IMG/VR virus record: IMGVR_UViG_3300045988_099805
Coordinates: 1 to 61,173 of that record
Direction: 5' to 3' (one strand)
DNA: 61,173 nt
From: a virus
Positions 9,546-61,102 of this stretch are shown one piece after another (position 1 is the stretch's first letter; each line of letters begins with the position of its first letter). The position numbers and the translations under genes were made by a program. The notes beneath the pieces are model-generated. The model was not told where the DNA came from and made no database searches. It saw only the letters and a program-made list of their open reading frames with translations.

Positions 9546-9578
9546 TAGATGCAAGGATAAATGAAAGGTGGTCTATAT

Positions 9579-10313
9579 ATGAACGATTTACAAGTATTCA
9601 GCAGTACAGAGTTTGGTAGCGTACGAACAATAACCATAGACGGGAAAATAATGTTTGTTGGAAAAGATGTTTGTGATATTCTGGAGTACCAAAACGGTAG
9701 TCGAGATATAAACAGACATGTTGACGAAGATGACAGACAGAAGATTATGTTGTTTGATGGAACGAAAGAAAACGAAACCATAGTAATAAACGAATCCGGT
9801 CTTTATAGTTTGATATTTTCTAGCAGAATGCCAAACGCAAAGAAATTTAAGCGTTGGGTTACGAGCGAAGTGATACCGAGCATTCGGAAAAACGGATACT
9901 ACGATATGAGAGAAAGTAAAACGGATTCGTACATGATTGAGGATCCGGCAGAACGTGCAAGACGTTGGGCGGAAGAGTACGAAGAGAAAAAGTTGCTAGA
10001 ATGTAAAGTCACGGAGCTTAAACCAAAGGCTGATTATTTTGATGGGCTGGTCGATAGCAAACTTTTAACGACATTTAGAGATGCGGCAAAAGAATTTCAA
10101 ATGTCACCAAAGAGCTTTAATAAGTGGCTGACAGAGCACGGATACATTTACCGTGACAGGCACGGAATTATTAAGCCATATGAGCAGTATAGAAAAAGCG
10201 GTTTATTTCAACTTAAAGATTTTAAGACTCCTCACGGTTATTCTAATGTTCAAACGTATTTAACCATTAGAGGGAAAGAAACATTCCGTTTACTTATGGG
10301 GGTTGAACAATGA
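9579..10313 (+). CDS. antirepressor (BRO-N plus KilAC/ANT C-terminal domain)
   Basis: MNDLQVFSSTEFGSVRTITIDGKIMFVGKDV is a Bro-N domain. It is a paralogue of 40975..41718. ATG 9579 follows AAGGTGG. Confidence 0.75.
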   Translation: MNDLQVFSSTEFGSVRTITIDGKIMFVGKDVCDILEYQNGSRDINRHVDEDDRQKIMLFDGTKENETIVINESGLYSLIFSSRMPNAKKFKRWVTSEVIPSIRKNGYYDMRESKTDSYMIEDPAERARRWAEEYEEKKLLECKVTELKPKADYFDGLVDSKLLTTFRDAAKEFQMSPKSFNKWLTEHGYIYRDRHGIIKPYEQYRKSGLFQLKDFKTPHGYSNVQTYLTIRGKETFRLLMGVEQ

Positions 10314-10826: not shown

Positions 10827-10992
10827 AGAGATTGACGATGAATGTACGAAATGCGGTCGGATGTTTGAATGTGATTTATTTAAAACCGGTCACGGAATTG
10901 ATTGCCAGCGTAGTAATGTCACTGACATGGTTAAATGCCAGTTTGAACATTTAGATAAGCGAAAAGGAGGTAGAATCTATGAGACAGAATAG
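10810..10992 (+). CDS. hypothetical small Cys-containing protein (60 aa)
   Basis: ATG 10810 lies within track ORF 10801..10992. Confidence 0.45.
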   Translation: MKIGRKEIDDECTKCGRMFECDLFKTGHGIDCQRSNVTDMVKCQFEHLDKRKGGRIYETE

Positions 10993-11873: not shown

Positions 11874-12815
11874 ATGAATTATAATGAGCTGTTTATAAAC
11901 AAAGACGATGTTTTGCTTATCCGAAAAACGCTTGTAAAGGTTTTGGGTAATCTGAATGAAGCTGTTGTTCTTAACCAGATACATTATTGGCTTGAAATCA
12001 ATAAAAAGGCAGATAAAAATTTTCGTGATGGAAGATACTGGATTTTTAATACATATCAGTCGTGGAAAGAAACCGATTTTGATTTTTGGTCAGTAGACAC
12101 GATCAGAAGAACAATAACCAGTCTGGAGAAAAAAGGCATTGTTATTACAGCTAATTATAACAAAATGAAAATTGACAAGACAAAGTGGTATTCCATTGAC
12201 TATGAAAAGCTGCAAAGTCTTGTTGACAATTACGATATGGCAGATTGCGTTCACGACATGGCAAATTGCACAGATGGACATGGCAATCTCAGCAAAGCAA
12301 TACCAGAGACTACTACAGAGAATACATACAAAGACTACATAGAGGATAATACATCATCTAACGATGATGGAAAGGTAAATACATCATTTTCAGAAAATGA
12401 TGAAAAACCAAAACTCACAAAATCGGAATTGCAGAAAAAGCAACAGGACATGTCTAAACGTTTTTATGATATCTGCGATGTATCTATCGGTCATGGTGAT
12501 TTGAAAGAAGCAGTAAATAATGCTTTTAATCTTTACATGGATTTGTTTACAGAGAAAACAGGGAAGACACATCCGATATTGAGAAATGAAACGCTGATTG
12601 ACGTATGTTCAGCTTTATCCCATATAAACGATAAAGAGTTTAATCATTTTGAGGAGTTTGATTTTTCAAAACCAAAAGAAGATGGAACAATGCCGTTGGA
12701 AGAAATGGTAAGATTGCACTTTGCTAGAAGCCACAATGGTAAGACAGATTATAGCATAGCTCATTTTTGTAACAAAAAGTATCTTTTGAAACTGGCACAA
12801 TTTGTAATGAGTTAG
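11874..12815 (+). CDS. putative replication initiator / winged-helix (RepA_N or DnaD-like) protein
   Basis: GGAGG RBS. N-terminal ...EAVVLNQIHYWLE...GRYWIFNTYQSWKE...TIRRTITSLEKKGIV looks like a wHTH domain. The middle region is acidic. Confidence 0.45.
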   Translation: MNYNELFINKDDVLLIRKTLVKVLGNLNEAVVLNQIHYWLEINKKADKNFRDGRYWIFNTYQSWKETDFDFWSVDTIRRTITSLEKKGIVITANYNKMKIDKTKWYSIDYEKLQSLVDNYDMADCVHDMANCTDGHGNLSKAIPETTTENTYKDYIEDNTSSNDDGKVNTSFSENDEKPKLTKSELQKKQQDMSKRFYDICDVSIGHGDLKEAVNNAFNLYMDLFTEKTGKTHPILRNETLIDVCSALSHINDKEFNHFEEFDFSKPKEDGTMPLEEMVRLHFARSHNGKTDYSIAHFCNKKYLLKLAQFVMS

Positions 12816-36397: not shown

Positions 36398-38020
36398 ATG
36401 GCTTATAAAACAGGATGGATGAAGAAAATCATTAACGGAGTTTCAACAAAGGTATTTGCCTTTGCTCATGCAAAGACGGTTTATTCGGATTTTACGAACA
36501 AATTGACATTAGAAGATAAGGTAAAAACAAAAAAGATTCAAATTTTCGCAGACGCTACCATCGATTACTACAGAGAAATAGAACCAATAGCAGGAGACGT
36601 TTCGATTCTTACCCCTCCGATTGTCGTGAACGGTTCTGAAAGCTCATATGATCCTAACGGTGGAGAATCAATTAGCGGCGAAAATTACACATATAGCCAA
36701 AAAAATGAAACAAACTTAAATATTCTTGATTCGCTTATTTCATCCGCTCAAACAACATCGGGGATTAAAGTGACGCCCAGAAATTCAACTGGCTTTGGTG
36801 GTAATTACTATCGAGTTAGCGGGACGGCTACGGAAGACGTTACCATTCCGCTTTACTCCGTATCAAACCCGTTGAGTGACGCACTTTGGTTTGCTGGGAA
36901 TATCAGTTCATCAATGTCAGCAAATACATTTTATTACTTGATTTCTGACACGGCAGGTAATAGCGTAGAAATCGGAACGGATGAAGCTAAAACGCAAAGC
37001 GTAAAGCTGGGAACTCACAGCGGAACAGTGACCGTATCGCTGGTTGTTAAGAGCGGAACCAAAGTAACTCTTAACGCAGTCGTTAGGGGAGGATACAAAA
37101 AGCAATATACCTTTTACGATGTTGGAAGTAAAAAATATTCGGACAAGATCGACAATGTTGTAGATGCAGTGCTTGACGTGAAAAATACAGCTAATTTTTC
37201 ACATAACATTCCGAGAATTGTTCAAAAAGACATTACATCGTATATTACAGACGGTACTTTTTATAAGCGTTTGAACGGAACGGATGGTTTTGATCTTTTT
37301 GAAGATATTTACGTTGGAGATTATATTAAAATGTCCCGTGCAATTACTTGTCCAGATTCGACTAATGGAACTGTTGGTAGCCAGTATGTCACAATCGCTG
37401 GTTTGGATACTATGATGTATAATGGTGAAGATGGTAAATATGTAAATTATCACCATGCAGTTATGGTTCCTGGTCAAGGCTTTGAAGGAATACAGCATTT
37501 CGGTAGACACGCTATGAACGCAACAAACACAACGGAGGGTGGATATGTTGCGTCAGTGATGGATCAATCGGTTTTAGGGGCAGTTGCAACAGAAGGTTCT
37601 ACTGCTAGTGGAGCAACAATCAATCAGCAATTATATGCCGAGTTTGGAAGTCATCTGAAAACAACAGATGAATTACTATCGAGTAGCATCAACGCAACCG
37701 GCATAAATCGTTTTGGAATGGCTAGTGGGTGCAGTGATAATTGGGGTTGGGCTATGAGACAGGCTGTGCTTATGAGTGAAGTTGAGGTTTACGGTTCCCC
37801 TATTTGGTCATCCAGCGGATATGATACGGGTATTGCGAAAGTGCAGTTGCCGCTTTTTGTTAATAGTAGAAGAGCAATGAATAGTCGGACATCATGGTAC
37901 TGTCTTAAAGATGTAGCGTCTTCTTCTCGTTTCTGCGTTTGCAACGACACTGGCAGTGCGTACTACAGTGGTGCAGGCAATACATGGAATGGTGTGCGTC
38001 CTCGGTTTATACTCTCATAG
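36398..38020 (+). CDS. tail fibre / receptor-binding protein with C-terminal ...GVRPRFILS motif
   Basis: 540 aa. The C-terminus resembles the GVRPFCI ending of the DGR targets at the protein level only. Confidence 0.5.
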   Translation: MAYKTGWMKKIINGVSTKVFAFAHAKTVYSDFTNKLTLEDKVKTKKIQIFADATIDYYREIEPIAGDVSILTPPIVVNGSESSYDPNGGESISGENYTYSQKNETNLNILDSLISSAQTTSGIKVTPRNSTGFGGNYYRVSGTATEDVTIPLYSVSNPLSDALWFAGNISSSMSANTFYYLISDTAGNSVEIGTDEAKTQSVKLGTHSGTVTVSLVVKSGTKVTLNAVVRGGYKKQYTFYDVGSKKYSDKIDNVVDAVLDVKNTANFSHNIPRIVQKDITSYITDGTFYKRLNGTDGFDLFEDIYVGDYIKMSRAITCPDSTNGTVGSQYVTIAGLDTMMYNGEDGKYVNYHHAVMVPGQGFEGIQHFGRHAMNATNTTEGGYVASVMDQSVLGAVATEGSTASGATINQQLYAEFGSHLKTTDELLSSSINATGINRFGMASGCSDNWGWAMRQAVLMSEVEVYGSPIWSSSGYDTGIAKVQLPLFVNSRRAMNSRTSWYCLKDVASSSRFCVCNDTGSAYYSGAGNTWNGVRPRFILS

Positions 38021-38375: not shown

Positions 38376-38378
38376 TTA

Positions 38379-38406
38379 AGAGGGGGCATCTGCCCCCTCT
38401 TTTTTA
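38379..38406. terminator. strong intrinsic terminator between convergent genes
   Basis: agagggggca/tgccccctct stem followed by TTTTTT. Confidence 0.85.
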
Positions 38407-38420
38407 TTGCCAAAATTCAA

Positions 38421-39215
38421 TTACCGAACGCCCCATTTTCCGTTGCTGTCGATAAATCCGACCACATAGCCTATCTTATCGTCAATTTTGCTGTCTGGGA
38501 TAATGTCAGAATCGCCAAAAAGCGATATGTAATGTTTTTCTTTCCTGCCGTTCCGGACGCTGATTTCTTTCTTGACAATGTAGATACCGCCACCACTGGT
38601 AATAATGCAATGCTCACCTTTGACAGCTTCACGGTCGCAGGCAACCAGTACAATCTCATTTTCCATATAGTATGGCATATAACTGTCATTAGGAATTTTA
38701 ATTCCCGTATAAGCCTTGGATTTCACATTTGACGGAAAATTCTCTAAATTGACCATTTCAGATACGTTTGTAGTTGCTAGGATTCCATTTTCATACTTCG
38801 GAACGAATACAGAGATATAATTAGATTTATTACTTACTTTTGAGTATAGCATTTTCTGATGGCGTATAAAGTATCGAACTAACAGCAGTGCATTTTCGGG
38901 TAGTCCACGGCAGATTTCCACGCTTTCCCGCATTTCCTTTGTCATAGTCTGACAGCCGACCAATTCATCAATGCTGACTTGTAATGCCCTTGCCAGTGCT
39001 ATGACGGTAGACAGCCGTATTCCCTGCTTGTCTTTGTATAGCAGATTGTTTATCGTTGGTATCGGTACTCCCGACTGTTCCGAAATATCCCGTATCGTAA
39101 TATCAGGGTCCTGAACGTACATTTCCACGTTACGGCGTAGCGTGGCGATATCGTCCACTTTGTCAGAGCGAATCAACTTTGTCGAAATTTGTTTCAATTT
39201 TTCATCCCTTATCAT
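38421..39215 (-). CDS. CI/LexA-like repressor (HTH_XRE plus S24 peptidase-like C-terminal domain)
   Basis: ...IRLSTVIALARALQVSIDELVG is an HTH. The C-terminal ...EIVLVACDREAVKGEHCIITSGGGIYIVKK is S24-like. Confidence 0.7.
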   Translation of the reverse strand: MIRDEKLKQISTKLIRSDKVDDIATLRRNVEMYVQDPDITIRDISEQSGVPIPTINNLLYKDKQGIRLSTVIALARALQVSIDELVGCQTMTKEMRESVEICRGLPENALLLVRYFIRHQKMLYSKVSNKSNYISVFVPKYENGILATTNVSEMVNLENFPSNVKSKAYTGIKIPNDSYMPYYMENEIVLVACDREAVKGEHCIITSGGGIYIVKKEISVRNGRKEKHYISLFGDSDIIPDSKIDDKIGYVVGFIDSNGKWGVR

Positions 39216-39373: not shown

Positions 39374-39402
39374 TTGACATACAAGAACATACGTTCTATA
39401 AT
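39374..39402 (+). promoter_or_regulatory. consensus promoter with GAAC-N4-GTTC operator in the spacer
   Basis: TTGACA (39374-79), 17 nt (tacaaGAACATACGTTC), TATAAT (39397-402). Confidence 0.7.
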
Positions 39403-40974: not shown

Positions 40975-41718
40975 ATGGAAGATTTACAGATTTTTCAAAA
41001 CAGTGAGTTTGGAAATGTACGCACACTTCAAATCGAAGGAAAGCCGTATTTTGTAGCAACGGATGTGGCTACAGCACTTGGATATTCCAATCCTAGAAAG
41101 GCTATAAAAGACCATTGCAAGGGAGTAACGAAACGTGACACCCCTACATCTAGTGGTACACAATCAATGTCATACATAAATGAGGGAGATTTGTACCGAT
41201 TGATTATGAAGTCGAAATTGCCGTCAGCAGAGCGATTTGAAAGTTGGGTTATGGACGAGGTATTGCCGTCAATCAGAAAGAACGGCGGTTACATTGACGG
41301 GCAGGAGCATCTATCTGATGAAGAACTGATGGCAAAGGCGTTGGTCGTTGCCAATAACAAAATCGCAGAGAGGGACAGGATTATTCAGCGTATGAAACCA
41401 AAAGAGGTTTTTGCTGATGCGGTTGCAACCAGTAAGACGTCAATCCTTGTTGGCGATTTGGCAAAACTGATTTGTCAGAATGGCTACCAGATAGGGCAGA
41501 AACGATTGTTTGAGTGGTTACGGAGCAACGGCTACTTAATCAAAAGTGGTTCGTCAAGGAATATGCCGCAACAGCGGTATGTCGAGCAGGGGCTTTTCGA
41601 GGTGAAAGAAAGCAATTTTCAGAATCCCGATGGCAGTGTGAGAATTACCCGAACCACAAAGGTTAGCGGTAAAGGTCAGATTTACTTTATCAATAAGTTT
41701 AAGCAGATGGAAATTTAA
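40975..41718 (+). CDS. antirepressor (BRO-N plus KilAC/ANT C-terminal domain)
   Basis: MEDLQIFQNSEFGNVRTLQIEGKPYFVATDVATALGY... A paralogue of 9579..10313. Confidence 0.8.
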   Translation: MEDLQIFQNSEFGNVRTLQIEGKPYFVATDVATALGYSNPRKAIKDHCKGVTKRDTPTSSGTQSMSYINEGDLYRLIMKSKLPSAERFESWVMDEVLPSIRKNGGYIDGQEHLSDEELMAKALVVANNKIAERDRIIQRMKPKEVFADAVATSKTSILVGDLAKLICQNGYQIGQKRLFEWLRSNGYLIKSGSSRNMPQQRYVEQGLFEVKESNFQNPDGSVRITRTTKVSGKGQIYFINKFKQMEI

Positions 41719-43748: not shown

Positions 43749-44027
43749 ATGTTAGAAGTTACAGGAGTTGAAGAAAAGGTTTGTGAGTGCAAGAAGAATG
43801 TAATTGAGATTGGCAGAAAGCGATACGAGGAGCTTTTAGGTCTTGAGAGCCGTATTGGTGTACTGGTTGAGCTTATCAGACTTGACGGTTACGTGAATGT
43901 CACTCAAATGCTGACAATTATCGGAACGATTGACGCACAGGAAGTAATCGAAGTTTTACAGGAGAAAGAAAGAAAAAGAGAAGAAGAAAGGAGAGCGGCG
44001 GCAAATGAAAGAAATCAAAATCCTTAA
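43749..44027 (+). CDS. hypothetical protein (92 aa)
   Basis: AAGGAGAAG RBS. Confidence 0.5.
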   Translation: MLEVTGVEEKVCECKKNVIEIGRKRYEELLGLESRIGVLVELIRLDGYVNVTQMLTIIGTIDAQEVIEVLQEKERKREEERRAAANERNQNP

Positions 44028-45921
44028 CATTGAAATGACAAATTTTATGGCATATGGCTACGAAAAGGTCAGTTTCAACGATTTGACCAGAATCATCGGT
44101 CGCAACGGAGTTGGAAAAAGCACTATTGCGAATGCTTATATGTGGCTCCTGTTTGATTGTGACTACGATTTGACACCGAAGCCGGTTGTGAGACGGGAAG
44201 AAAGTGGAGTGCCGGTTGATGGAGATGTTATTGTATCGGCTACGTTTGATGTTAACGGTAAAACCTTCACAATGAAAAAGGTTCAGAAGCGGACATTTAG
44301 CAAAGACGGCAGCAGTTACAAGGACGATAACAAGTATTTTATTAACGACGTTCCAAAAACTGCCAAGGACTTTAAGGGTTACATTGGCATTGATATGGAC
44401 ATTGTCAAGATGTGCTGTAACATCAACGCTTTTACCGCACAGAAGCCGGTCGAAATGAGAAAATACCTTTTTGCTCATACGGACAGTATTAGCGATTATG
44501 ATATCGCCGCAGGAAACGAAGATTTGAAAGACCTTTTGCCGTTGTTGTCTGATTACACAGCAGAAGAGATAACGGCAATGAACAAATCCATTGTAAGCGA
44601 TATGAAAAAGGAATTATCAACATATTCCGGTCGTATCGCAGAGAAAGAGCTGGAGATCAAGCAGAAGCAGGAAACGGACGTATCGGCATTGGAATTGCAG
44701 AAAAATCTATTGCTGGAACGTCTGAAAGAAAACAAAGACAAGCAGGCTTCTAATAAAAAGTTGATGGATTCTTATGATAAGGAGACCAACGATATCCTTG
44801 ATATGAAATTCCGGCTTAATGATATGGTTCGTGAGGCAAACGAAGAAACAGAAAAAGAATTGAGTGACATTAAAAAACAGATTGGAAGAAAAGAAGAGAT
44901 TTTTACCAAGCTTAATGTAAAAATACATAAGAATACTTTTGATCTTTCTGGTTACAAAAAAGAAAACATTAAGCTAAACGAGGAAAGAGAAAGACTTTCT
45001 AATGTTTGGCAGTCTGTGAAATCAGAGCAATTCGACGAGAAATCGACTGTATGTCCGACGTGTCACCGGGAGTTCCCGGATGAAGAAATCGAAACTCTGA
45101 AATCTGATTTTGAGAAGTCAAAGAATGATCGGATCGAAAAAATCGAGAGTGACGGTTTGAAAATTAAGAAAGAAATCGAGGAAAACAACAAAGAAATATC
45201 TAAATTAGAGGAACTAAACAAAAATAACGAAGCTGATAAGAAAATTTTGGCAGAAGAGATTGAGCAGCTTGAAAACAATCTGTCCAAAGAAAGAAGCGAC
45301 ATTACCGGCACCGATGATTACAAGAAGTTGGAAAGTGAGATTTCCGAAAAGGAGAAATTCCTTGAGAAATACAATGACATTTCCGCTTTGAAAACTATTC
45401 TAGCCGGAGAAGAGACAGAAATACGTTCGGAATTGGCAGAATGTGAAAAGCTTCTGATGCAGGCAGATACTTCCGATTGCGAGGATAGATTAGAGACTCT
45501 GCGAAAAGAGCAACGTGAAAAATCACAGAAGCAGGCAGACGCAGAGAAGGTTCTTCATTTGATTGAGGAGTTAGAGAAAGCAAAAAACTCAAAATTGGCT
45601 GATGCCGTAAACGCTAATTTTGGAATCGTCAAATGGAAACTGTTTGAGATTGGAAAATCCGGCGGTTGTAAATCGGATTGCATTCCTATGGTGGATGGAA
45701 AGTCAATTCTAACCACTATGAGCAACAAGGGTAACCGCATCATTGGCAGGATTGACATTTGTAATTCGATCCAGAAAATGAGCGGGATCCGTTGCCCTAT
45801 TTGGATCGATGATGTTGAGAGCTTGGATGAAGCGAACCGGGCGAAAGTAATTGATATGATCGAAAGTCAGAAGATTCTTCTGATTGTTGATAACAAAGAT
45901 ATGGAAATTATGGAGGGATAA
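44005..45921 (+). CDS. SMC/SbcC-like AAA ATPase (recombination-associated)
   Basis: Walker A GRNGVGKST at the N-terminus, a 350-aa coiled coil with a CPTC hook-like motif, and a C-terminal ...PIWIDDVESLD Walker B region. Confidence 0.65.
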   Translation: MKEIKILNIEMTNFMAYGYEKVSFNDLTRIIGRNGVGKSTIANAYMWLLFDCDYDLTPKPVVRREESGVPVDGDVIVSATFDVNGKTFTMKKVQKRTFSKDGSSYKDDNKYFINDVPKTAKDFKGYIGIDMDIVKMCCNINAFTAQKPVEMRKYLFAHTDSISDYDIAAGNEDLKDLLPLLSDYTAEEITAMNKSIVSDMKKELSTYSGRIAEKELEIKQKQETDVSALELQKNLLLERLKENKDKQASNKKLMDSYDKETNDILDMKFRLNDMVREANEETEKELSDIKKQIGRKEEIFTKLNVKIHKNTFDLSGYKKENIKLNEERERLSNVWQSVKSEQFDEKSTVCPTCHREFPDEEIETLKSDFEKSKNDRIEKIESDGLKIKKEIEENNKEISKLEELNKNNEADKKILAEEIEQLENNLSKERSDITGTDDYKKLESEISEKEKFLEKYNDISALKTILAGEETEIRSELAECEKLLMQADTSDCEDRLETLRKEQREKSQKQADAEKVLHLIEELEKAKNSKLADAVNANFGIVKWKLFEIGKSGGCKSDCIPMVDGKSILTTMSNKGNRIIGRIDICNSIQKMSGIRCPIWIDDVESLDEANRAKVIDMIESQKILLIVDNKDMEIMEG

Positions 45922-45924
45922 AGA

Positions 45925-46533
45925 ATGAGTAGTAAAACATTGGAAATGGCAAGGGAACTGGTAAAAAGACTTGAAGAAGAGGAGAAAAAAAGCAAAGTCA
46001 AACTTTGTGAATTGCATCCGGGCGATACATTCAAAATTGGAGATCATGATTTTATCGTCCTCTTTCAAGATGATTTCACGGAAACAACAAGAGTAATCTC
46101 AAAAGGATTCATGGCAGAAAATATCGTATTTGATGATGATACGAGAGACTACAGCAAATCTAATCTTAGAAAGGTCATCGAGGGAGATATTCAGCCTATT
46201 ATCGAAGCGGAGGTTGGTGAAGAAAATATTGCTGAATATTCTGTTGACTTGACAACGGTTGATATGCAGGAAGAATTTTCTCATTTTAAATGCAAGGTCA
46301 GACCTATTACATTTGATGAAGCAAGAAAGTACAATGATCTTCTTGTGAATAACGAGTTAAATGATTGGTGGTGGACTTGCACACCGTGGTCTACAGCTGA
46401 AAGAGGATGGGAGTATTCAATCGCCGTTGTTGCTTCGTCCGGCAATTTCAACTACTGGGGCTGCAATGGCAACTGCGGTGTTCGCCCATTTTGTATCTTG
46501 AAATCTAATATCTTTGTATCGAAGGGAGAATAA
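45925..46533 (+). CDS. DGR variable protein 1 (202 aa)
   Basis: Its C-terminus carries VR1. A paralogue of 46536..47144. ...WWWTCTPWS...VVASSGNFNYWGCNGNCGVRPFCI. Confidence 0.8.
   Translation: MSSKTLEMARELVKRLEEEEKKSKVKLCELHPGDTFKIGDHDFIVLFQDDFTETTRVISKGFMAENIVFDDDTRDYSKSNLRKVIEGDIQPIIEAEVGEENIAEYSVDLTTVDMQEEFSHFKCKVRPITFDEARKYNDLLVNNELNDWWWTCTPWSTAERGWEYSIAVVASSGNFNYWGCNGNCGVRPFCILKSNIFVSKGE
46422..46496 (+). repeat. DGR variable repeat VR1
   Basis: Compared with the TR: 11 substitutions, all at TR adenines, plus C69->T. Confidence 0.85.
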
Positions 46534-46535
46534 TT

Positions 46536-47144
46536 ATGGCTAATTTAACAATGAAAATTTTACAGGAGCAGATCAACGACCTTAGAAATGAGGTTGCCAT
46601 TTTGAAAGCAGAAAAAAGTTTTTCTAAAATCCATACCGGTCTTAAAATCGGAGACACTTTTAAAATCGCAGGTCTTGACTGGAAGATTATTGACATTACA
46701 GACAAGGGTTATTCTTGCCTTTGTGAAATTTTGGAAGAAGAGATGAAGTTTGACGATTCTTCTAACGACTGGAGATCGAGCGTTTTAAGAGAATATTTGA
46801 ATGGGGATTTTCTCAAAAAGATATCCGATGAAGTTGGAAAAGAAAATATCGTTAAGTTCGAAAGAGATCTGTTATCTCTGGACGGTCAGACGGAATATGA
46901 AAAGTACGAGGATTTTATTTCTCTTCTTACTGTAGATGAATACAGGAAATATCGAAGTCTTATTCCAAATGAGGGAAATTGGTGGTGGCTTATTACTCCT
47001 TGGAGTACACCTTGCAACGATTATGAATATTCGGTTACCGTTGTTGCTTCGTCCGGCAGTATCGACAGCGGGAACTACAATGGCGACTTCGGTGTTCGCC
47101 CATTTTGTATCTTTTCTTCTTCAATCTTTGAATCAGAGGAGTAA
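46536..47144 (+). CDS. DGR variable protein 2 (202 aa)
   Basis: Its C-terminus carries VR2. ...WWWLITPWS...VVASSGSIDSGNYNGDFGVRPFCI. Confidence 0.8.
   Translation: MANLTMKILQEQINDLRNEVAILKAEKSFSKIHTGLKIGDTFKIAGLDWKIIDITDKGYSCLCEILEEEMKFDDSSNDWRSSVLREYLNGDFLKKISDEVGKENIVKFERDLLSLDGQTEYEKYEDFISLLTVDEYRKYRSLIPNEGNWWWLITPWSTPCNDYEYSVTVVASSGSIDSGNYNGDFGVRPFCIFSSSIFESEE
47037..47111 (+). repeat. DGR variable repeat VR2
   Basis: Compared with the TR: 9 substitutions, all at TR adenines, plus C69->T. Confidence 0.85.
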
Positions 47145-47148
47145 TTAA

Positions 47149-47520
47149 ATGGCTGGAACGGAATTAAAGGTAATCTTGAAAGCAAAAGACCTTGCTGAAC
47201 ATACACTGCGGATAACTTCAAACTGCAATAGATATCCGAAGAAATACAGATTTTCTCTTGTGGATAAAATGCAAAATAAAGCACTTGAAATCTATGAGTA
47301 TCTGTATGAATCTAATCGAACGGATTTGAAGTTGTATCGCAGGGAGCGGTCGGAGCTTCAAACCAAAGCAATAACGCATTGTGACGAACTTTTGTTTTAC
47401 ATTGAATTATCAACGAAACTAAACATCATAAATGCAAAAAGCACGGAATATTGGTCGAAGATGGTTTCTGACATTAAGCATATGGCGATTGCTTGGAGAA
47501 CTAAGGACAAAGAAAGATAA
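47149..47520 (+). CDS. avd: DGR accessory variability determinant (Avd-like four-helix-bundle protein)
   Basis: 123 aa, basic. ...RYPKKYRFSLVDKMQNKALEIYEYLYESN... pattern. Positioned between target and TR. Confidence 0.75.
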   Translation: MAGTELKVILKAKDLAEHTLRITSNCNRYPKKYRFSLVDKMQNKALEIYEYLYESNRTDLKLYRRERSELQTKAITHCDELLFYIELSTKLNIINAKSTEYWSKMVSDIKHMAIAWRTKDKER

Positions 47521-47545
47521 ATTTATTAGGTTGCGCACTGCATAA

Positions 47546-47620
47546 ACCGTTGTTGCTTCGTCCGGCAATATCAACAACAGGAACTACAATAACAACAACG
47601 GTGTTCGCCCATTCTGTATC
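47546..47620 (+). repeat. DGR template repeat (TR)
   Basis: accgttgttgcttcgtccggcaatatcaacaacaggaactacaataacaacaacggtgttcgcccattctgtatc. It is non-coding, rich in AAC/AAT codons in the VR frame, and has 22 adenines. Confidence 0.85.
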
Positions 47621-47718
47621 ACACAGACAGTTATAGTAGGTAGTAAGCCGAAATCGGAAAAAGATACAAAAAAGTGCACGACCTTTCCTAAAAGGATAAA
47701 TACAAAGGAATTTTTACT

Positions 47719-48747
47719 ATGGATAAAGATATTATTTGTGATTATGAAAATCTGTATAAGGCTTATAAGAAAGCTAAATACGGTAAAAAATTCAATGGCA
47801 GCAGTGCAAAATTTCAGACAATGAGCCTTGAAGGACTGCATCTTTTAAAAGAACAGCTTGAAAATCAGACATACCGGATGAATCCGTACAATGAATTTAA
47901 GGTCTATGAACCTAAGGAGAGAGTGATTAAATCGTGTTCTTTTAAGGATAAAGTTGTTCAACATTGTCTGTGCGATAACATATTGTATCCGAGATTGGAA
48001 AGCGAGTTCATCAAAACCAATTATGCAGGGCAGAAAGGAAAAGGAACTCATTTCGGAATGGATTGTCTAAGAGATCAAATGCTTGAGTTTTACGTAAAGC
48101 ACGGTCTTGATGGCTGGATTCTTAAATGTGATATTAAGAAGTTTTTCTACCAGATAGATCACGAAATCTTAAAAGATATTGTTGACTATCATTTTCCAGA
48201 CGAATATGTGAAGTGGTTAAATCATTTGTTTATAGACAGCACAGATGGTTTGGGACTTCCGCTTGGAAACCAAGTTGCACAGGTTTATGCTTTGTTGATG
48301 CTTAACGGGTTAGATCGTTTTATTACCGGAGAATTAGGTATAAAACTATACGGACGATATATGGACGATTTCTACTTAATCCACCAAGATAAAGGTTATT
48401 TGATGTGGTACCTTGACTGCATAAGGGAATTTGTTGCCAGTCTCAGATTGTCGCTGAATGGGAAAACGCAAATATTGCCGTTTAAAAACGGGATACTGTT
48501 TACCGGTTTTCATCATTACATTGCGAAAGACGGAAAATACATAAGAAAACTTACAGGATCGAATAAACGTAAAATCCGCAAGAAGATTAGAACATGGGTA
48601 AAGCTTGTGAAATCTGGAAGAATGACAGAAAAGAAGTTTTATGAAAAGTACAATGCCTGGAAAAATCATGCATTACACGGAAATTGCGTAAAACTTTGTT
48701 ATTCAATGGATTTATATGTAAAAGAATTATTTGAAAGCGAGGAATGA
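47719..48747 (+). CDS. DGR reverse transcriptase
   Basis: 342 aa. YGRYMDDF catalytic motif. LPLGNQVAQ resembles the DGR-RT (I/L)GxxxSQ signature. Confidence 0.9.
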   Translation: MDKDIICDYENLYKAYKKAKYGKKFNGSSAKFQTMSLEGLHLLKEQLENQTYRMNPYNEFKVYEPKERVIKSCSFKDKVVQHCLCDNILYPRLESEFIKTNYAGQKGKGTHFGMDCLRDQMLEFYVKHGLDGWILKCDIKKFFYQIDHEILKDIVDYHFPDEYVKWLNHLFIDSTDGLGLPLGNQVAQVYALLMLNGLDRFITGELGIKLYGRYMDDFYLIHQDKGYLMWYLDCIREFVASLRLSLNGKTQILPFKNGILFTGFHHYIAKDGKYIRKLTGSNKRKIRKKIRTWVKLVKSGRMTEKKFYEKYNAWKNHALHGNCVKLCYSMDLYVKELFESEE

Positions 48748-49634
48748 ATATGGAGACAGAAATTAAAGAAGCAGAAAGCAAAGAACTGGTTGCAAAAGAT
48801 TTTACAGAGGGAATGGTCGTAAAGATCAAGCAGAAAGAGCAATTCGGCTTGACGTTTCCTAAAGATTACAACTATACCAATGAGTTTATGTCGGCAATGC
48901 TTATTTTACAGGAGACTACTGACAGAAATAAAAAGCCTGTTTTGCAAAGTTGCAGCAGAGCAAGTATCGAAAATGCCCTTATTGAAATGGTCACTGACGG
49001 TTTGTCCATGAGAAAGAAGCAGTGTTATCCGGTCGCATACGGTGGTAAATTACAATGTCAGCGTTCCGTTTATGGAAACACCTGCATTGCGAGACGTTTT
49101 GGTCTGAAAGATATCAATGCTTCTGTTATTTATAAAGGCGATATCTTCAAATTTCATAAGGAAAACGCAAAGACTGTGATTGATTCTCACGAGCAGTCTT
49201 TTGAGAATATCAACAACGATAACATTATTGGTGCATATGCCGTTGCTGTTATGGATGACGGGGAAATTATTTCGGAAGTAATGACGATGGATCAGATTAA
49301 GCAGGCTTGGCAGCAGGGGTACGGATACAAAGAGAATGGTAATGGCACTCACCAGAAGTTTCCGGATCAGATGGCAATGAAAACAGTGAAAAACCGGCTT
49401 CTGAAATATATCAATAATTCACATACCGGCACGGAAAACGACATTGACGATTTGAATGTTGTCAGTGAGCAGGAAATGATTGAGAAAGATGTAGAGTACG
49501 ATATCGAGCAGAACGCCAACAGCGTTGATTTTGACGAATCAGACATTATCGACAGCGTTGCGACCGATGTTGACGATGGAGAGGCAGAGAAAAACGATGA
49601 TTTGCCGGAATTTATGAAAGTGGAGGAAGCGTAG
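48744..49634 (+). CDS. recT: RecT-family single-strand annealing recombinase
   Basis: ...NALIEMVTDGLSMRKKQCYPVAYGGKLQCQRSVYGNTCIARRFG..., with an acidic C-terminal tail. Confidence 0.7.
   Translation: MNMETEIKEAESKELVAKDFTEGMVVKIKQKEQFGLTFPKDYNYTNEFMSAMLILQETTDRNKKPVLQSCSRASIENALIEMVTDGLSMRKKQCYPVAYGGKLQCQRSVYGNTCIARRFGLKDINASVIYKGDIFKFHKENAKTVIDSHEQSFENINNDNIIGAYAVAVMDDGEIISEVMTMDQIKQAWQQGYGYKENGNGTHQKFPDQMAMKTVKNRLLKYINNSHTGTENDIDDLNVVSEQEMIEKDVEYDIEQNANSVDFDESDIIDSVATDVDDGEAEKNDDLPEFMKVEEA

Positions 49635-51332: not shown

Positions 51333-51340
<8 letters not shown>
51155..51340 (+). CDS. hypothetical small protein (61 aa)
   Basis: ATG follows GGAGGAG. The MSVEELAEFLYG motif is shared with 58830..58997. 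Confidence 0.5.
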
Positions 51341-52527
<1,187 letters not shown>

Positions 52528-59740: not shown

Positions 59741-61102
59741 ATGAAATGCGTAGCGTATATAAGAGTATCAACAGAAAAGCAAGCAGAGGAGGGAAACGGA
59801 TTAGATAGTCAGATAAGAGACATTAAGAATCATTGCAGAAAAAATGGAATGATTATTGAGGACTGGTATGTAGATGACGGATATACCGGATCAAATATGG
59901 ATAGGCCGGAATTGCAAAGGTTGGTAAACGATTGCACAAGAAAAAGAGTTAAATGTGTAGTTTCTTTTAAGTTAGACCGCTTGTCAAGGAGTATGATTGA
60001 TGGATTGTATTTGATTGAGAGAGTCTTTCAGCCGAACAATGTGAGATTTGAATGCGTTCATGACTCGGTAAGTTATGACAGCCCTATGGAGCAGGCATAT
60101 ACGCAGATGATGGCAGTATTCGCTCAGCTTGATAAAAACACCATGATGCTTAGAATGCGTGGAGGTATGTTGGAGCGAGTGAAGCAAGGATATTGGATGG
60201 GAGGAGGAAATTTGCCATACTGCTATTCGTATGATAAAAATAGCGGAATTTTGGTTCCCATTCCCGAAAAAGCTGATAAGGCACAAAAAGCTCTGGATTT
60301 ATTCTTGGACGGTTACTCTGATGTTAAAATAAAAAATATGTTAGGGTTTAAGTCGGAGCCGGTAGTAAAAAGCATACTAACTAGCGTAGTAAACATTGGA
60401 AAAATACCATACAAGGGTAATATCTATCAAGGTAGACATACTCCGATTTTTGACCAAGAAAAATTTGAATTAGCGCAAGAAATGAGGAAGACACGAAGTA
60501 AGTCAAAAATTTGTTGTCAAACGGAGCCAAATCTTTTGACAGGTCTTTGTTATTGCGGTGTTTGTGGATGCAAAATGAGATATCAAAAATGGACGCACGG
60601 AAAGCATAAGATATACTGTTGTTCAAGGAGTAAAGATTTGTCGTACATACCTAATTATGATGAAAATTGCGATAATTCAATAGAGTGGTCGGACGAAATT
60701 GAGGAGCAAGTCGAGAAAGAAATAATACGCATATCGCTTGACCTTTCTTCGTATAAGCCAAAAGAAAAAGAAACCAAACTTGATATTATGAGATTTCAAT
60801 TAAAAAAAGATAAAAAAAGGTTAAAAAGACTTTACGCTCTATATGCCGATGGTAATGATACTGTAATCGAAATGATCAAAGATTTAGAGTCTCAAATAGA
60901 AAAAACGAAAAAAAATATATCTGACGAAGAAAAAAACAATGCCAATAGTCAGAAAAAAGAATTTGTTTACGAAAATATAAAAAAAATTGCCGATGTATGG
61001 AAGTACACCGACAAAAAACATAAAAATATGATATTAAAGACTATAATAGATAAAATCGTAATAGTCAATGGAAATATCGAAATTCAGTTAAAAAAATTTT
61101 AG
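59741..61102 (+). CDS. int: large serine recombinase (integrase)
   Basis: N-terminal resolvase domain (AYIRVSTEKQ with the catalytic Ser, ...LDRLSRS), a recombinase domain, a Cys-rich zinc-ribbon (CYCGVCGCKM...CC) and a C-terminal coiled coil. Confidence 0.9.
   Translation: MKCVAYIRVSTEKQAEEGNGLDSQIRDIKNHCRKNGMIIEDWYVDDGYTGSNMDRPELQRLVNDCTRKRVKCVVSFKLDRLSRSMIDGLYLIERVFQPNNVRFECVHDSVSYDSPMEQAYTQMMAVFAQLDKNTMMLRMRGGMLERVKQGYWMGGGNLPYCYSYDKNSGILVPIPEKADKAQKALDLFLDGYSDVKIKNMLGFKSEPVVKSILTSVVNIGKIPYKGNIYQGRHTPIFDQEKFELAQEMRKTRSKSKICCQTEPNLLTGLCYCGVCGCKMRYQKWTHGKHKIYCCSRSKDLSYIPNYDENCDNSIEWSDEIEEQVEKEIIRISLDLSSYKPKEKETKLDIMRFQLKKDKKRLKRLYALYADGNDTVIEMIKDLESQIEKTKKNISDEEKNNANSQKKEFVYENIKKIADVWKYTDKKHKNMILKTIIDKIVIVNGNIEIQLKKF

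Follow-up and report, generated by a model that had tools for sequence, protein, structure and literature searches.

A gut-phage diversity-generating retroelement that probably diversifies two small lectin-fold proteins from the early recombination module

The window, meaning the whole 61,173-nt stretch of viral DNA that was analysed, very probably carries a canonical and apparently working diversity-generating retroelement (DGR) that diversifies two small lectin-fold proteins. The phage is a temperate, siphovirus-like gut phage of approximately 61 kb whose host is probably a Lachnospiraceae species. A blastn search against annotated phages returned no close relative, and for this reason no annotation was borrowed. 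The original prediction of a complete DGR was upheld, as a template repeat (TR), two variable repeats (VRs), an accessory protein (Avd) and a reverse transcriptase (RT) were all found.

45925..46533, plus strand: target 1, 202 aa, N-terminal helix and DUF6273 / C-type-lectin-like region (predicted); phrog_9958, E = 3.7e-30
46423-46497, plus strand: VR1, the last 25 full codons preceding the target 1 C-terminal tail
approximately 46444-46476, plus strand: variable codons of VR1
46536..47144, plus strand: target 2, 202 aa, helix at residues 4-28 and DUF6273 / C-type-lectin-like region (predicted); Pfam DUF6273, 45.5 bits
47037-47111, plus strand: VR2; variable codons are residues 175-185, approximately 47058-47090
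47149..47520, plus strand: avd, 123 aa, accessory four-helix-bundle protein; phrog_3206 ("Avd protein of DGR"), E = 2.8e-22
47546-47620, plus strand: TR, 75 nt with 22 adenines, 20 of them within positions 1-54
47719..48747, plus strand: DGR reverse transcriptase, 342 aa, YMDD; phrog_1423, E = 3.7e-99; Pfam RVT_1

The repeats were resolved with MAFFT and a repeat finder as one three-copy family of 75 nt (46423-46497, 47037-47111 and 47546-47620), with similarity ending sharply on either side. The coordinates proposed earlier for the TR and VR2 were reproduced, while those for VR1 (46422-46496) proved to be 1 nt too low. VR1 differs from the TR at 12 positions and VR2 at 10, corresponding to the 11 and 9 TR-adenine differences that had been counted by hand, plus a C-to-T difference at position 69 common to both. 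The share of differences at TR adenines was therefore 20/22, and the hypergeometric p for this concentration was 1.5e-6 for VR1 and 3.3e-5 for VR2. Non-adenine mismatches spread throughout the repeats, named beforehand as evidence that would speak against a DGR, were absent; such mismatches sit at fixed 3' positions alone. Each of the two 202-aa ORFs has a VR, in frame, at its 3' end, and translation of the TR in the VR frame gave TVVASSG-NINNRNYNNNN-GVRPFCI, confirming the predicted N-I-N-N-R-N-Y-N-N-N-N core. Three copies of the 20-nt 5' anchor were counted in the window versus zero expected by chance, and no further TR or VR copy was found there. A second TR was considered and rejected since a both-strand scan tolerating template-adenine mismatches gave A-rich junk only, as did the same scan in the relative L173/L002. 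A 75-nt TR is short, yet inside the known DGR range. The TRs of relatives include versions of 78-81 nt, and that of one relative (L019) has 15 adenines only, as though decaying.

For 110 TR/VR pairs from related phages, mismatches were observed at 54% of adenine sites versus 3.8% of others. Among the 220 non-adenine mismatches in these pairs, 165 fall at fixed positions 67 and 69: the TR-C / VR-T difference at position 69 was found in 102 of 110 pairs and the position 67 difference in 63, both being located 3' of GGTGTTCGCCC. Positions 55-65 of the TR form a GC-rich block and positions 66-69 hold the fixed difference from the VRs, an IMH*-like arrangement that may confer IMH/IMH* directionality. 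Orthologues of the targets are hypervariable in their VR codons only. Compared with target 2, the public proteins P0002 and P0004 carry changes in 9 of 11 VR codons and in none of the other 191, so the VR-confined heterogeneity that had been proposed as a check is present, between genomes, among near-identical public sequences. This between-genome comparison argues for ongoing diversification confined to the VR, and activity in this particular genome would be expected from its relatives.

It is, by contrast, highly improbable that the repeats merely record past activity of a system now dead in this genome. That explanation could draw on the window being a consensus sequence alone, on the adenine-poor TR of L019 and on the cultured Faecalibacterium phages with homologous small targets, for which no read-level VR variation was seen. 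Every ORF is intact, however, the TR retains its 22 adenines with AAY codons, compensatory changes maintain the RNA helix described below, and 9 of 11 VR codons have changed in proteins that are otherwise identical. The target-target-avd-TR-RT order was found in most of 80 IMG/VR loci examined, and the cassette also occurs in genomes of Clostridia, where RT identity falls as low as approximately 54%. The lineage counts at least 572 contigs in IMG/VR, with further relatives in genomes across the Clostridia, and the target protein family is present in the early regions of at least six phage backbones.

The RT was assigned to the DGR lineage, alongside the BPP-1 enzyme, from its best structural-database match. 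Its closest PDB relative was bRT (8ub7), the Bordetella phage DGR enzyme, with E = 1.1e-37, whereas retron-type, group II and other RTs gave E values of 7e-8 or worse; a grouping with retrons or group II introns, which would have counted against the prediction, was thus not observed. R74, Q187 and the catalytic Asp residues align with bRT, and identity to annotated phage RTs was 48.5% at most. The predicted YMDD and LGNQVAQ motifs were both present, the latter departing from the usual DGR form, which ends in SQ. The predicted Avd-like gene was likewise recovered, in the order target, avd, TR, RT, and provides the accessory protein (Avd or HRDC) characteristic of a DGR; its matches to NCBIfam DivGenRetAVD (E = 9e-12) and Pfam bAvd (E = 2.8e-4) were both under the curated cutoffs.

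The non-coding sequence around the TR contains the following candidate RNA elements.

47528..47539, plus strand: 5' arm of a long-range duplex (candidate cPRT Stop duplex), pairs with 47673-47684
47663..47668, plus strand: spacer GATACA, candidate template:primer duplex; exact reverse complement of TGTATC at 47615-47620 (TR 3' end)
47673..47684, plus strand: 3' arm of the long-range duplex
47686..47696, plus strand: short stem-loop, 3 bp and a 5-nt loop, with two of three pairs covarying
47697-47710, plus strand: conserved A-rich tail 3' of the stem-loop

The 12-bp duplex brackets the TR, shows compensatory changes in 9 of 12 pairs and is paired in 98.7% of cells. The covariation comprised 71 compensatory cells, with a score attained by none of 500 shuffles, and the signal for the duplex and stem-loop collapsed when the pairing partners were slid. 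The proposed structure is based on this covariation rather than on folding energy, as the minimum free energy fold of the TR region alone was not significant (z = −1.4). No Rfam family reached threshold; a candidate RT-2 RNA over the spacer was rejected, since it scored 19.8 bits against a threshold of 40 and was gone in a narrower scan, and none of the other matches was convincing. For the priming duplex, a compensatory TGCAT/ATGCA change was found in the relative L074, a single such example for a duplex of 6 bp, and GATACA:TGTATC may serve as the primer pairing. The cPRT Stop of BPP-1 is published and has been predicted also in 207 other DGRs, and the element order here (duplex, stem-loop, adenosines) matches it.

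By analogy with BPP-1, a transcript of approximately 47528-47710 would fold so that the 12-bp duplex, stem-loop and adenosines enclose the TR, and this template RNA would be bound by an RT-Avd complex. Pairing of the GATACA spacer with the TR 3' end would cis-prime cDNA synthesis; the RT would copy the TR from approximately position 69 to position 1 with misincorporation at adenines and would halt on meeting the duplex that lies 6 nt 5' of the TR. The cDNA would replace VR1 or VR2 with its 3' junction in the GC-rich block at positions 55-65, and as a consequence the fixed differences at positions 66-69 would never be transferred and the TR would stay invariant. Randomisation of 20 adenines in 12 codons could yield approximately 5e11 possible peptides per target, displayed on a surface beta-hairpin of each signal-less 202-aa paralogue. 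The scheme builds on the observed parts, adenine-specific divergence, RNA covariation, predicted fold and VR-confined variation, while its priming, stop and junction positions are presumptive.

The two adjacent 202-aa paralogues predicted to share one TR are indeed 37% identical (E = 8e-42). Against DUF6273 (PF19789; cutoff 23.5 bits), target 2 scored 45.5 bits and target 1 scored 23.0 bits, just under the cutoff; target 1 was nevertheless placed in the family because of its 37% identity to target 2. The AlphaFold check suggested earlier indicated a C-type-lectin-like fold, the AF2 model of target 2 (pLDDT 93.7) having been obtained from an alignment of 76 diverse sequences; it superseded an unusable model (pLDDT 51) from a shallow alignment of 23 near-identical sequences. 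The expected N-terminal helical segment was modelled as a helix at residues 4-28, and the variable codons map to a beta-hairpin with strands at 176-180 and 184-186. Using Foldseek, the top PDB match of this model was the T. ramosa IgA peptidase (9qa6), the N-terminal domain of which its authors annotated as DUF6273, and C-type lectins and BFVD DUF6273 phage proteins came next. Both targets were classed as DUF6273 / C-type-lectin-fold DGR variable proteins. Neither has a hydrophobic N-terminus or TM segment, in agreement with the predicted lack of a signal peptide, and ten longer homologues carry DUF6273 only. Each target, at 202 aa, combines a helix with a single C-lec-like domain, carries its VR at the C-terminus and lacks an Ig-like domain, an architecture that places neither in the tentaclin class. 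They also do not resemble an Mtd-like tropism determinant, the model being without a beta-prism or beta-sandwich and the genes being outside the tail module.

The proposed position of the cassette between an SbcC-like ATPase and RecT was substantiated by profile matches on both flanks.

39374..39402, plus strand: consensus early promoter TTGACA-17-TATAAT, adjoining a divergent CI-like repressor
44005..45921, plus strand: SbcC/Rad50-like ATPase; phrog_77, E = 5.7e-53, Rad50 zinc hook
48744..49634, plus strand: RecT; Pfam RecT, E = 2.1e-36; start overlaps the RT stop

A gap of 3 nt separates the ATPase stop from the start of target 1, the cassette is operon-like, with intergenic gaps of 2-4 nt and the RT/RecT overlap, and no strong terminator was found between the early promoter and the cassette. 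Co-transcription of the targets with the early recombination genes seems likely. Gene position says little about when the targets are expressed or whether they are excluded from the virion. Lamassu was considered for the neighbouring ATPase, which matched LmuB (E = 1.5e-24), and was rejected: no LmuA effector was present among five neighbouring proteins scanned, and the match was judged to be Rad50-family cross-similarity, phrog_77 being the better fit. PADLOC models gave no match for the targets, Avd or MBL hydrolase and generic matches alone for the RT.

Phage DGRs are usually explained as tail-fibre tropism switches. The targets might be virion-borne receptor-binding proteins like Mtd that dock to the tail or capsid through their helix, with the DGR serving host-range switching; we regard this as plausible but less likely than not. 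The predicted C-type-lectin fold with its hypervariable surface hairpin would suit such a role, as would the strong conservation of the N-terminal helix in orthologues and the weak similarity of the model to collectin neck-plus-CRD trimers, and the same role has been hypothesised for nd4 and nd12 tgt2, homologues that are 35-36% identical. Furthermore, the TR in published relatives also diversifies tentaclins, virion- or secretion-type proteins, which would favour an extracellular role. Set against these points, the target genes were located in the early replication/recombination module in all lineages examined, never in the tail module, and are translationally coupled to the SbcC-like and avd genes. 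The targets are without the Mtd beta-prism and beta-sandwich or an Ig-like anchor domain, Mtd was absent among the top 50 PDB matches listed for the target 2 model, and the phage already owns a tail fibre with a lectin-like tip.

37914..38007, plus strand: VR-like 3' end of the tail-fibre gene (36398-38020), outside this DGR; no cognate TR

The tail fibre ends in ...NGVRPRFILS, so the related GVRPRF motif without a TR match was as predicted in the window. The domain family to which it belongs is a genuine target of a DGR elsewhere: a phage contig in L166 carries a tail-module DGR, absent from the window, whose target (P0334, 325 aa) is 65% identical to the C-terminal 206 aa of the window tail fibre and whose 94-nt TR/VR pair has 18 of 19 mismatches at adenines. 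The window tail fibre is static among close relatives. Target 2 and the tail fibre gave no match by BLASTP or by hhalign with a shallow profile, and Pfam found nothing on the tail fibre; their relationship was visible solely in profile-profile comparison with deeper alignments.

From these data we infer that the targets are soluble ligand-binding proteins rather than tail components, probably oligomeric through the N-terminal helix. More specifically, they could be early intracellular binders, diversifiable against host defence proteins or competing phages, acting in counter-defence or superinfection exclusion, although we consider this unlikely at present. It would be consistent with a location in the early operon, 3' of a consensus early promoter, the recurrence of early placement on unrelated phage backbones, the lack of a signal peptide or TM segment, and the fact that the DGR of this phage family serves these proteins only. 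There is also a precedent in the Bacteroides phage Quimbyvirus, where a DGR target outside the structural module, in a defence island, was taken by the authors to be non-structural and to serve in conflict (Benler et al. 2021; PMC8008677); Quimbyvirus shares the placement with the present phage but differs in host phylum, in its frameshifted RT and in having one of two targets structural. However, no PADLOC defence model matched the targets, their longer homologues show no informative domain fusions, the several conserved cysteines may indicate an extracellular fold, and the documented or proposed roles of DGR targets in the literature compared are extracellular or at the cell surface. A broader form, in which the targets are an intracellular or lysis-released binder repertoire rather than adsorption proteins and the DGR-type domain of the tail fibre is left static, is held with similarly low confidence. 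If true, hypermutation would here serve counter-defence or exclusion instead of tropism.

The DGR machinery itself is ordinary. The system shares with BPP-1 (mtd-avd-TR-brt) the gene order target, avd, TR, RT, the adenine-specific TR-to-VR transfer, a C-type-lectin fold with a C-terminal VR, fixed TR/VR differences past a GC-rich block (IMH/IMH*-like), and a primer duplex, upstream:spacer duplex, stem-loop and adenosines at nearly the same spacer positions; the two RTs are 35-40% alignable (E = 1e-37). It differs in TR length (75 versus 134 nt), in the RT motif (AQ versus SQ), in its position in the early recombination rather than the tail module, and in having two tandem 202-aa targets, without the beta-prism and beta-sandwich domains of Mtd, in place of a single trimeric tail-fibre tip protein of 381 aa. 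The original prediction was correct that one TR serves two targets and that these are small, signal-less and encoded outside the tail module, but it overstated how unusual this is. Small DUF6273-only DGR targets have been published for gut Clostridia phages, namely nd4 and nd12 tgt2 (PMC10743442), Lelie and CP11 (PMC11792537) and a Toutatisvirus core gene (bioRxiv 10.1101/2024.10.15.618418), and multi-target DGRs, including one homologous target pair, are already described (PMC11792537). The small targets of nd4, nd12, Lelie and Toutatis are 30-36% identical over 76-94% of target 2, and such targets share with ours a single helix-flanked C-lec-like globule, a VR on the C-terminal beta-hairpin and a gene in the early region. 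In that group, however, the small gene carries a second VR at a distance of 10-40 kb from the RT and TR, and the main cassette target is a tentaclin with Ig-like domains; here there is no tentaclin and avd-TR-RT directly adjoins two tandem small paralogues. The distinctive feature is thus a whole cassette beside two tandem small targets with no structural target.

In this very common lineage of gut phages, a complete DGR is retained for just two small, predicted lectin-fold proteins of the early module. At approximately 2.8 kb, with a 75-nt template and a defined RNA scaffold, the cassette would be a compact, self-contained model for studying non-tail DGR targets, and its short template may suit targeted-mutagenesis engineering.

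The region 45925-48747 was found to consist of four closely spaced plus-strand genes and one 198-nt gap, as follows.

45925-46533, + strand, target 1 ORF (202 aa)
46536-47144, + strand, target 2 ORF (202 aa)
47149-47520, + strand, avd ORF (123 aa)
47521-47718, non-coding stretch of 198 nt holding the template repeat (TR)
47719-48747, + strand, reverse transcriptase (RT) ORF (342 aa)

MAFFT and a repeat finder gave three copies of a 75-nt direct repeat, at 46423-46497 (variable repeat VR1), 47037-47111 (VR2) and 47546-47620 (TR), and no further copy was present in the 61 kb. The VR1 start in the original prediction was one base too low; its other repeat coordinates agreed with these. The non-coding copy has 22 adenines. 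VR1 differs from it at 12 positions, 11 of them TR adenines (hypergeometric p 1.5e-6), and VR2 at 10, with 9 at adenines (p 3.3e-5). As had been claimed from the sequence, the sole non-adenine difference is a C-to-T change at position 69, common to both VRs. Similarity is lost sharply on both sides of the 75 nt, both VRs are in frame with their ORFs, and the TR translated in that frame reads TVVASSG-NINNRNYNNNN-GVRPFCI. The region is thus very probably a diversity-generating retroelement (DGR), and the prediction that it is complete was borne out, as repeats, targets, avd, RT and template RNA elements were all identified.

The RT matched Pfam RVT_1 and phrog_1423, and its best solved relative was bRT, the DGR RT of Bordetella phage BPP-1 (8ub7, E 1.1e-37), followed by a retron-type RT (7e-8) and a group II RT (4e-5). 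R74, Q187 and the catalytic aspartates highlighted in the bRT papers have aligned counterparts in this protein. The 123-aa Avd matched the phage Avd family phrog_3206 (E 2.8e-22) as well as the NCBIfam and Pfam Avd models, for both of which it fell under the curated cutoffs.

The template RNA was analyzed by covariation in an alignment of the avd-RT spacer from 25 relatives. A 12-bp long-range duplex pairs 47528-47539, directly 5' of TR, with 47673-47684 in the spacer. Compensatory changes were observed in 9 of the 12 pairs, 98.7% of cells were paired, and two G:C pairs at one end were invariant. The observed covariation was reached by none of 500 shuffles, and the signal was lost upon sliding the partners by 1-3 columns. 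On the 3' side come a stem-loop of 3 bp (47686-47696), which also covaries, and then an A-rich tail that is conserved. This arrangement matches the cPRT Stop of BPP-1 (Handa et al.), in which an 11-bp avd:spacer duplex (spacer positions Sp59-70) is followed by a stem-loop (Sp71-78) and by adenosines that dock into G:C pairs. Those authors predicted it in 207 other DGRs; the counterparts here are at Sp53-64, Sp66-76 and Sp78-80, respectively. Four nt upstream of the duplex arm lies the spacer hexamer GATACA (47663-47668, Sp43-48), which is perfectly complementary to TGTATC at the 3' end of TR, paralleling the template:primer duplex of BPP-1 (Sp47-56 with TR117-129); a compensatory TGCAT/ATGCA change in this pairing was observed in a related locus, L074. 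By analogy with BPP-1, the RT would begin cDNA synthesis close to TR position 69 and terminate it roughly 6 nt beyond the 5' end of TR. If so, the part of the cDNA that covers the fixed TR/VR differences at 66-69 would not be transferred, and information flow would stay one-way. Rfam gave no family at threshold for the template RNA region.

Natural diversification was apparent among relatives. From 572 IMG/VR matches to the RT, 80 loci with RT identities of 77-96% were kept, most of which have the order target, target, avd, TR, RT. Their 110 distinct TR/VR pairs were mismatched at 54% of template-adenine sites versus 3.8% elsewhere, and 165 of the 220 non-adenine mismatches fell at the fixed 3' positions 67 and 69. 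Hypervariability among target 2 orthologues (84-96% identical overall) was limited to 11 VR codons; two public proteins, P0002 and P0004, show changes relative to target 2 at 9 of these 11 codons and at 0 of the 191 other positions. The 20 adenines in TR positions 1-54 occupy eight AAY codons plus ACC, ATC, AGG and TAC, from which about 4.9e11 peptides per target were computed to be reachable, with a stop codon possible in none.

Variation in the cassette itself was also seen. A protein scan found one small target in L022 and L048 and three in L054, and a separate VR scan gave several additional loci with just one in-register VR. Both targets of L032 are target-2-like, and their VRs (565-639 and 1182-1256) differ at one adenine site, which suggests a very recent duplication, gene conversion, or one cDNA homed into both. 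TR is 78-81 nt in L046, L052 and L065 by one or two extra AAC codons, and some target 2 orthologues (P0004, P0010 and other 203-aa proteins) have a one-residue VR insertion. The L019 TR (216-290) has just 15 adenines and looks VR-like (AATGTCAGCATC...TACTACGACATC), which would suit an overwritten or decaying template; the upstream targets are not part of that locus.

The two targets are paralogues (37% identity, E 8e-42) of the Pfam DUF6273 family, target 2 scoring 45.5 bits and target 1 23.0 bits against a cutoff of 23.5. Neither sequence has a hydrophobic N-terminus or transmembrane segment. AlphaFold modeling of target 2 with 23 close homologues was unusable (pLDDT 51), and these were replaced by 76 diverse representatives, giving a pLDDT of 93.7 and a pTM of 0.81. 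In the model, a helix at the N-terminus (residues 4-28) precedes a globule of mixed alpha/beta structure. The top Foldseek PDB match was entry 9qa6, the Thomasclavelia ramosa IgA peptidase (E 5e-6), a protein whose N-terminal domain is annotated as DUF6273 by its authors; C-type lectins came after it. Among viral models, 24 matched at E <= 0.001, 9 of them named DUF6273. Variable residues 175-185 form a beta-hairpin (strands 176-180 and 184-186), the same arrangement as in the DUF6273 DGR targets of Baykov et al. One 6979-aa representative, P0134, has 17 separate stretches matching target 2, mostly residues 35-98, and seems to be a giant protein in which part of the domain is tandemly repeated.

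The tail fibre (36398-38020) had been noted as related to the VR ends and lacking a TR match, and both points held. A total of 932 homologues match its C-terminal 206 aa, weak precomputed DUF6273 hits being recorded for a dozen of them, and the last ~49 columns of the family matched the small targets in a profile-profile comparison (probability 78%, E 1.8e-5). The alignment is hypervariable between 'FC' and 'VRPRF'. P0334, 65% identical to this domain, is encoded in a tail module beside an RT (L166, 10001-13437), where adenines account for 18 of the 19 mismatches of a 94-nt pair (TR 12177-12270, VR 10872-10965). The domain family is thus a bona fide DGR target in the L166 phage. No cognate TR for the fibre was found in the window, and its VR-like stretch (~37914-38007) hardly varies among five close relatives; that of L173 is divergent, with no detectable TR. 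Thus the tail of this phage bears a DGR-target family member that has no TR, while two early-region proteins are what its DGR acts on.

The window holds an entire temperate phage. Its late genes run from terminase (14672) through portal, major head protein, tape measure and tail genes to 38020, and are followed by a classic lysis-lysogeny switch.

38378-38401, strong bidirectional terminator, end of the late operon
38421-39215, - strand, CI-like HTH repressor
39374-39402, consensus promoter (12/12, TTGACA-17-TATAAT), one of the divergent promoters

Downstream lie Ant, a 3D-domain protein, an SbcC/Rad50-like ATPase, the DGR, RecT, an MBL hydrolase, replication genes and a serine integrase. Gaps of 2-4 nt or overlaps separate the DGR genes from their neighbours; the SbcC-like neighbour is kept across most of the family and the RecT side is variable. 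That ATPase (44005-45921) has a zinc hook and a full-length match to the Lamassu LmuB model (E 1.5e-24); since no LmuA-like partner was found among the five neighbouring proteins scanned, a Lamassu assignment was rejected and the match was taken as Rad50-family cross-similarity. The large serine recombinase at the extreme end (59741-61102) fits a temperate phage or prophage-ordered sequence. Two paralogous Bro-N/KilAC anti-repressor (Ant) genes are far apart (9561-10313 and 40975-41718). A perfect (ACAG)x10.8 repeat (51717-51759) sits where a PAPS-reductase-like gene splits into overlapping ORFs (51333-51863 and 51646-52527), both frames reading TDRQTDRQ...; it may reflect phase variation through a slippage-prone frameshift, or else an artefact of assembly. 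The host is only a guess, because the nearest GTDB matches to the RT (Lachnospiraceae, Mediterraneibacter and Dorea MAGs) are just 66-74% identical.

Published DUF6273 DGR targets include the Ig-like-domain tentaclins and small tgt2 proteins of gut Clostridia phages nd4/nd12 (PMC10743442), large and small proteins of Faecalibacterium phages Lelie/CP11 (PMC11792537), and one of Toutatisvirus (bioRxiv 10.1101/2024.10.15.618418). Target 2 is 29-36% identical to proteins of nd4, nd12, Lelie, Toutatis and Brigit, where the small gene is likewise an early-region gene (in Brigit, directly 5' of exonuclease and RecT genes). There, however, RT and TR adjoin the tentaclin, 10-40 kb away, whereas in the present family the cassette adjoins two tandem small targets and a tentaclin is absent. 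The compact cassette also occurs in other backbones, again within replication modules, beside RecT, a replication initiator, a methyltransferase and a PAPS-reductase-like gene (L100) or a DnaD-like loader, a DnaB-like helicase and a methyltransferase (L131). Given the published DUF6273 targets and Quimbyvirus, for which a DGR target outside the structural module was reported (PMC8008677), this is a known kind of element in a layout that is distinctive, not unprecedented, and of modest novelty.

The targets' position across at least six backbones, their translational coupling to early genes, their lack of anchor domains and the presence of a separate tail-fibre tip argue for non-tail, early-expressed proteins. 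The same features count against virion receptors, which we regard as possible though doubtful; the lectin fold, the conserved cysteines and the fact that in relatives a single TR serves tentaclins as well would suit an extracellular or virion role. An intracellular conflict role was judged rather unlikely, and release at lysis or other roles take up what likelihood is left. The interest of the family is as a clean, abundant example of a phage DGR that serves only targets outside the tail.
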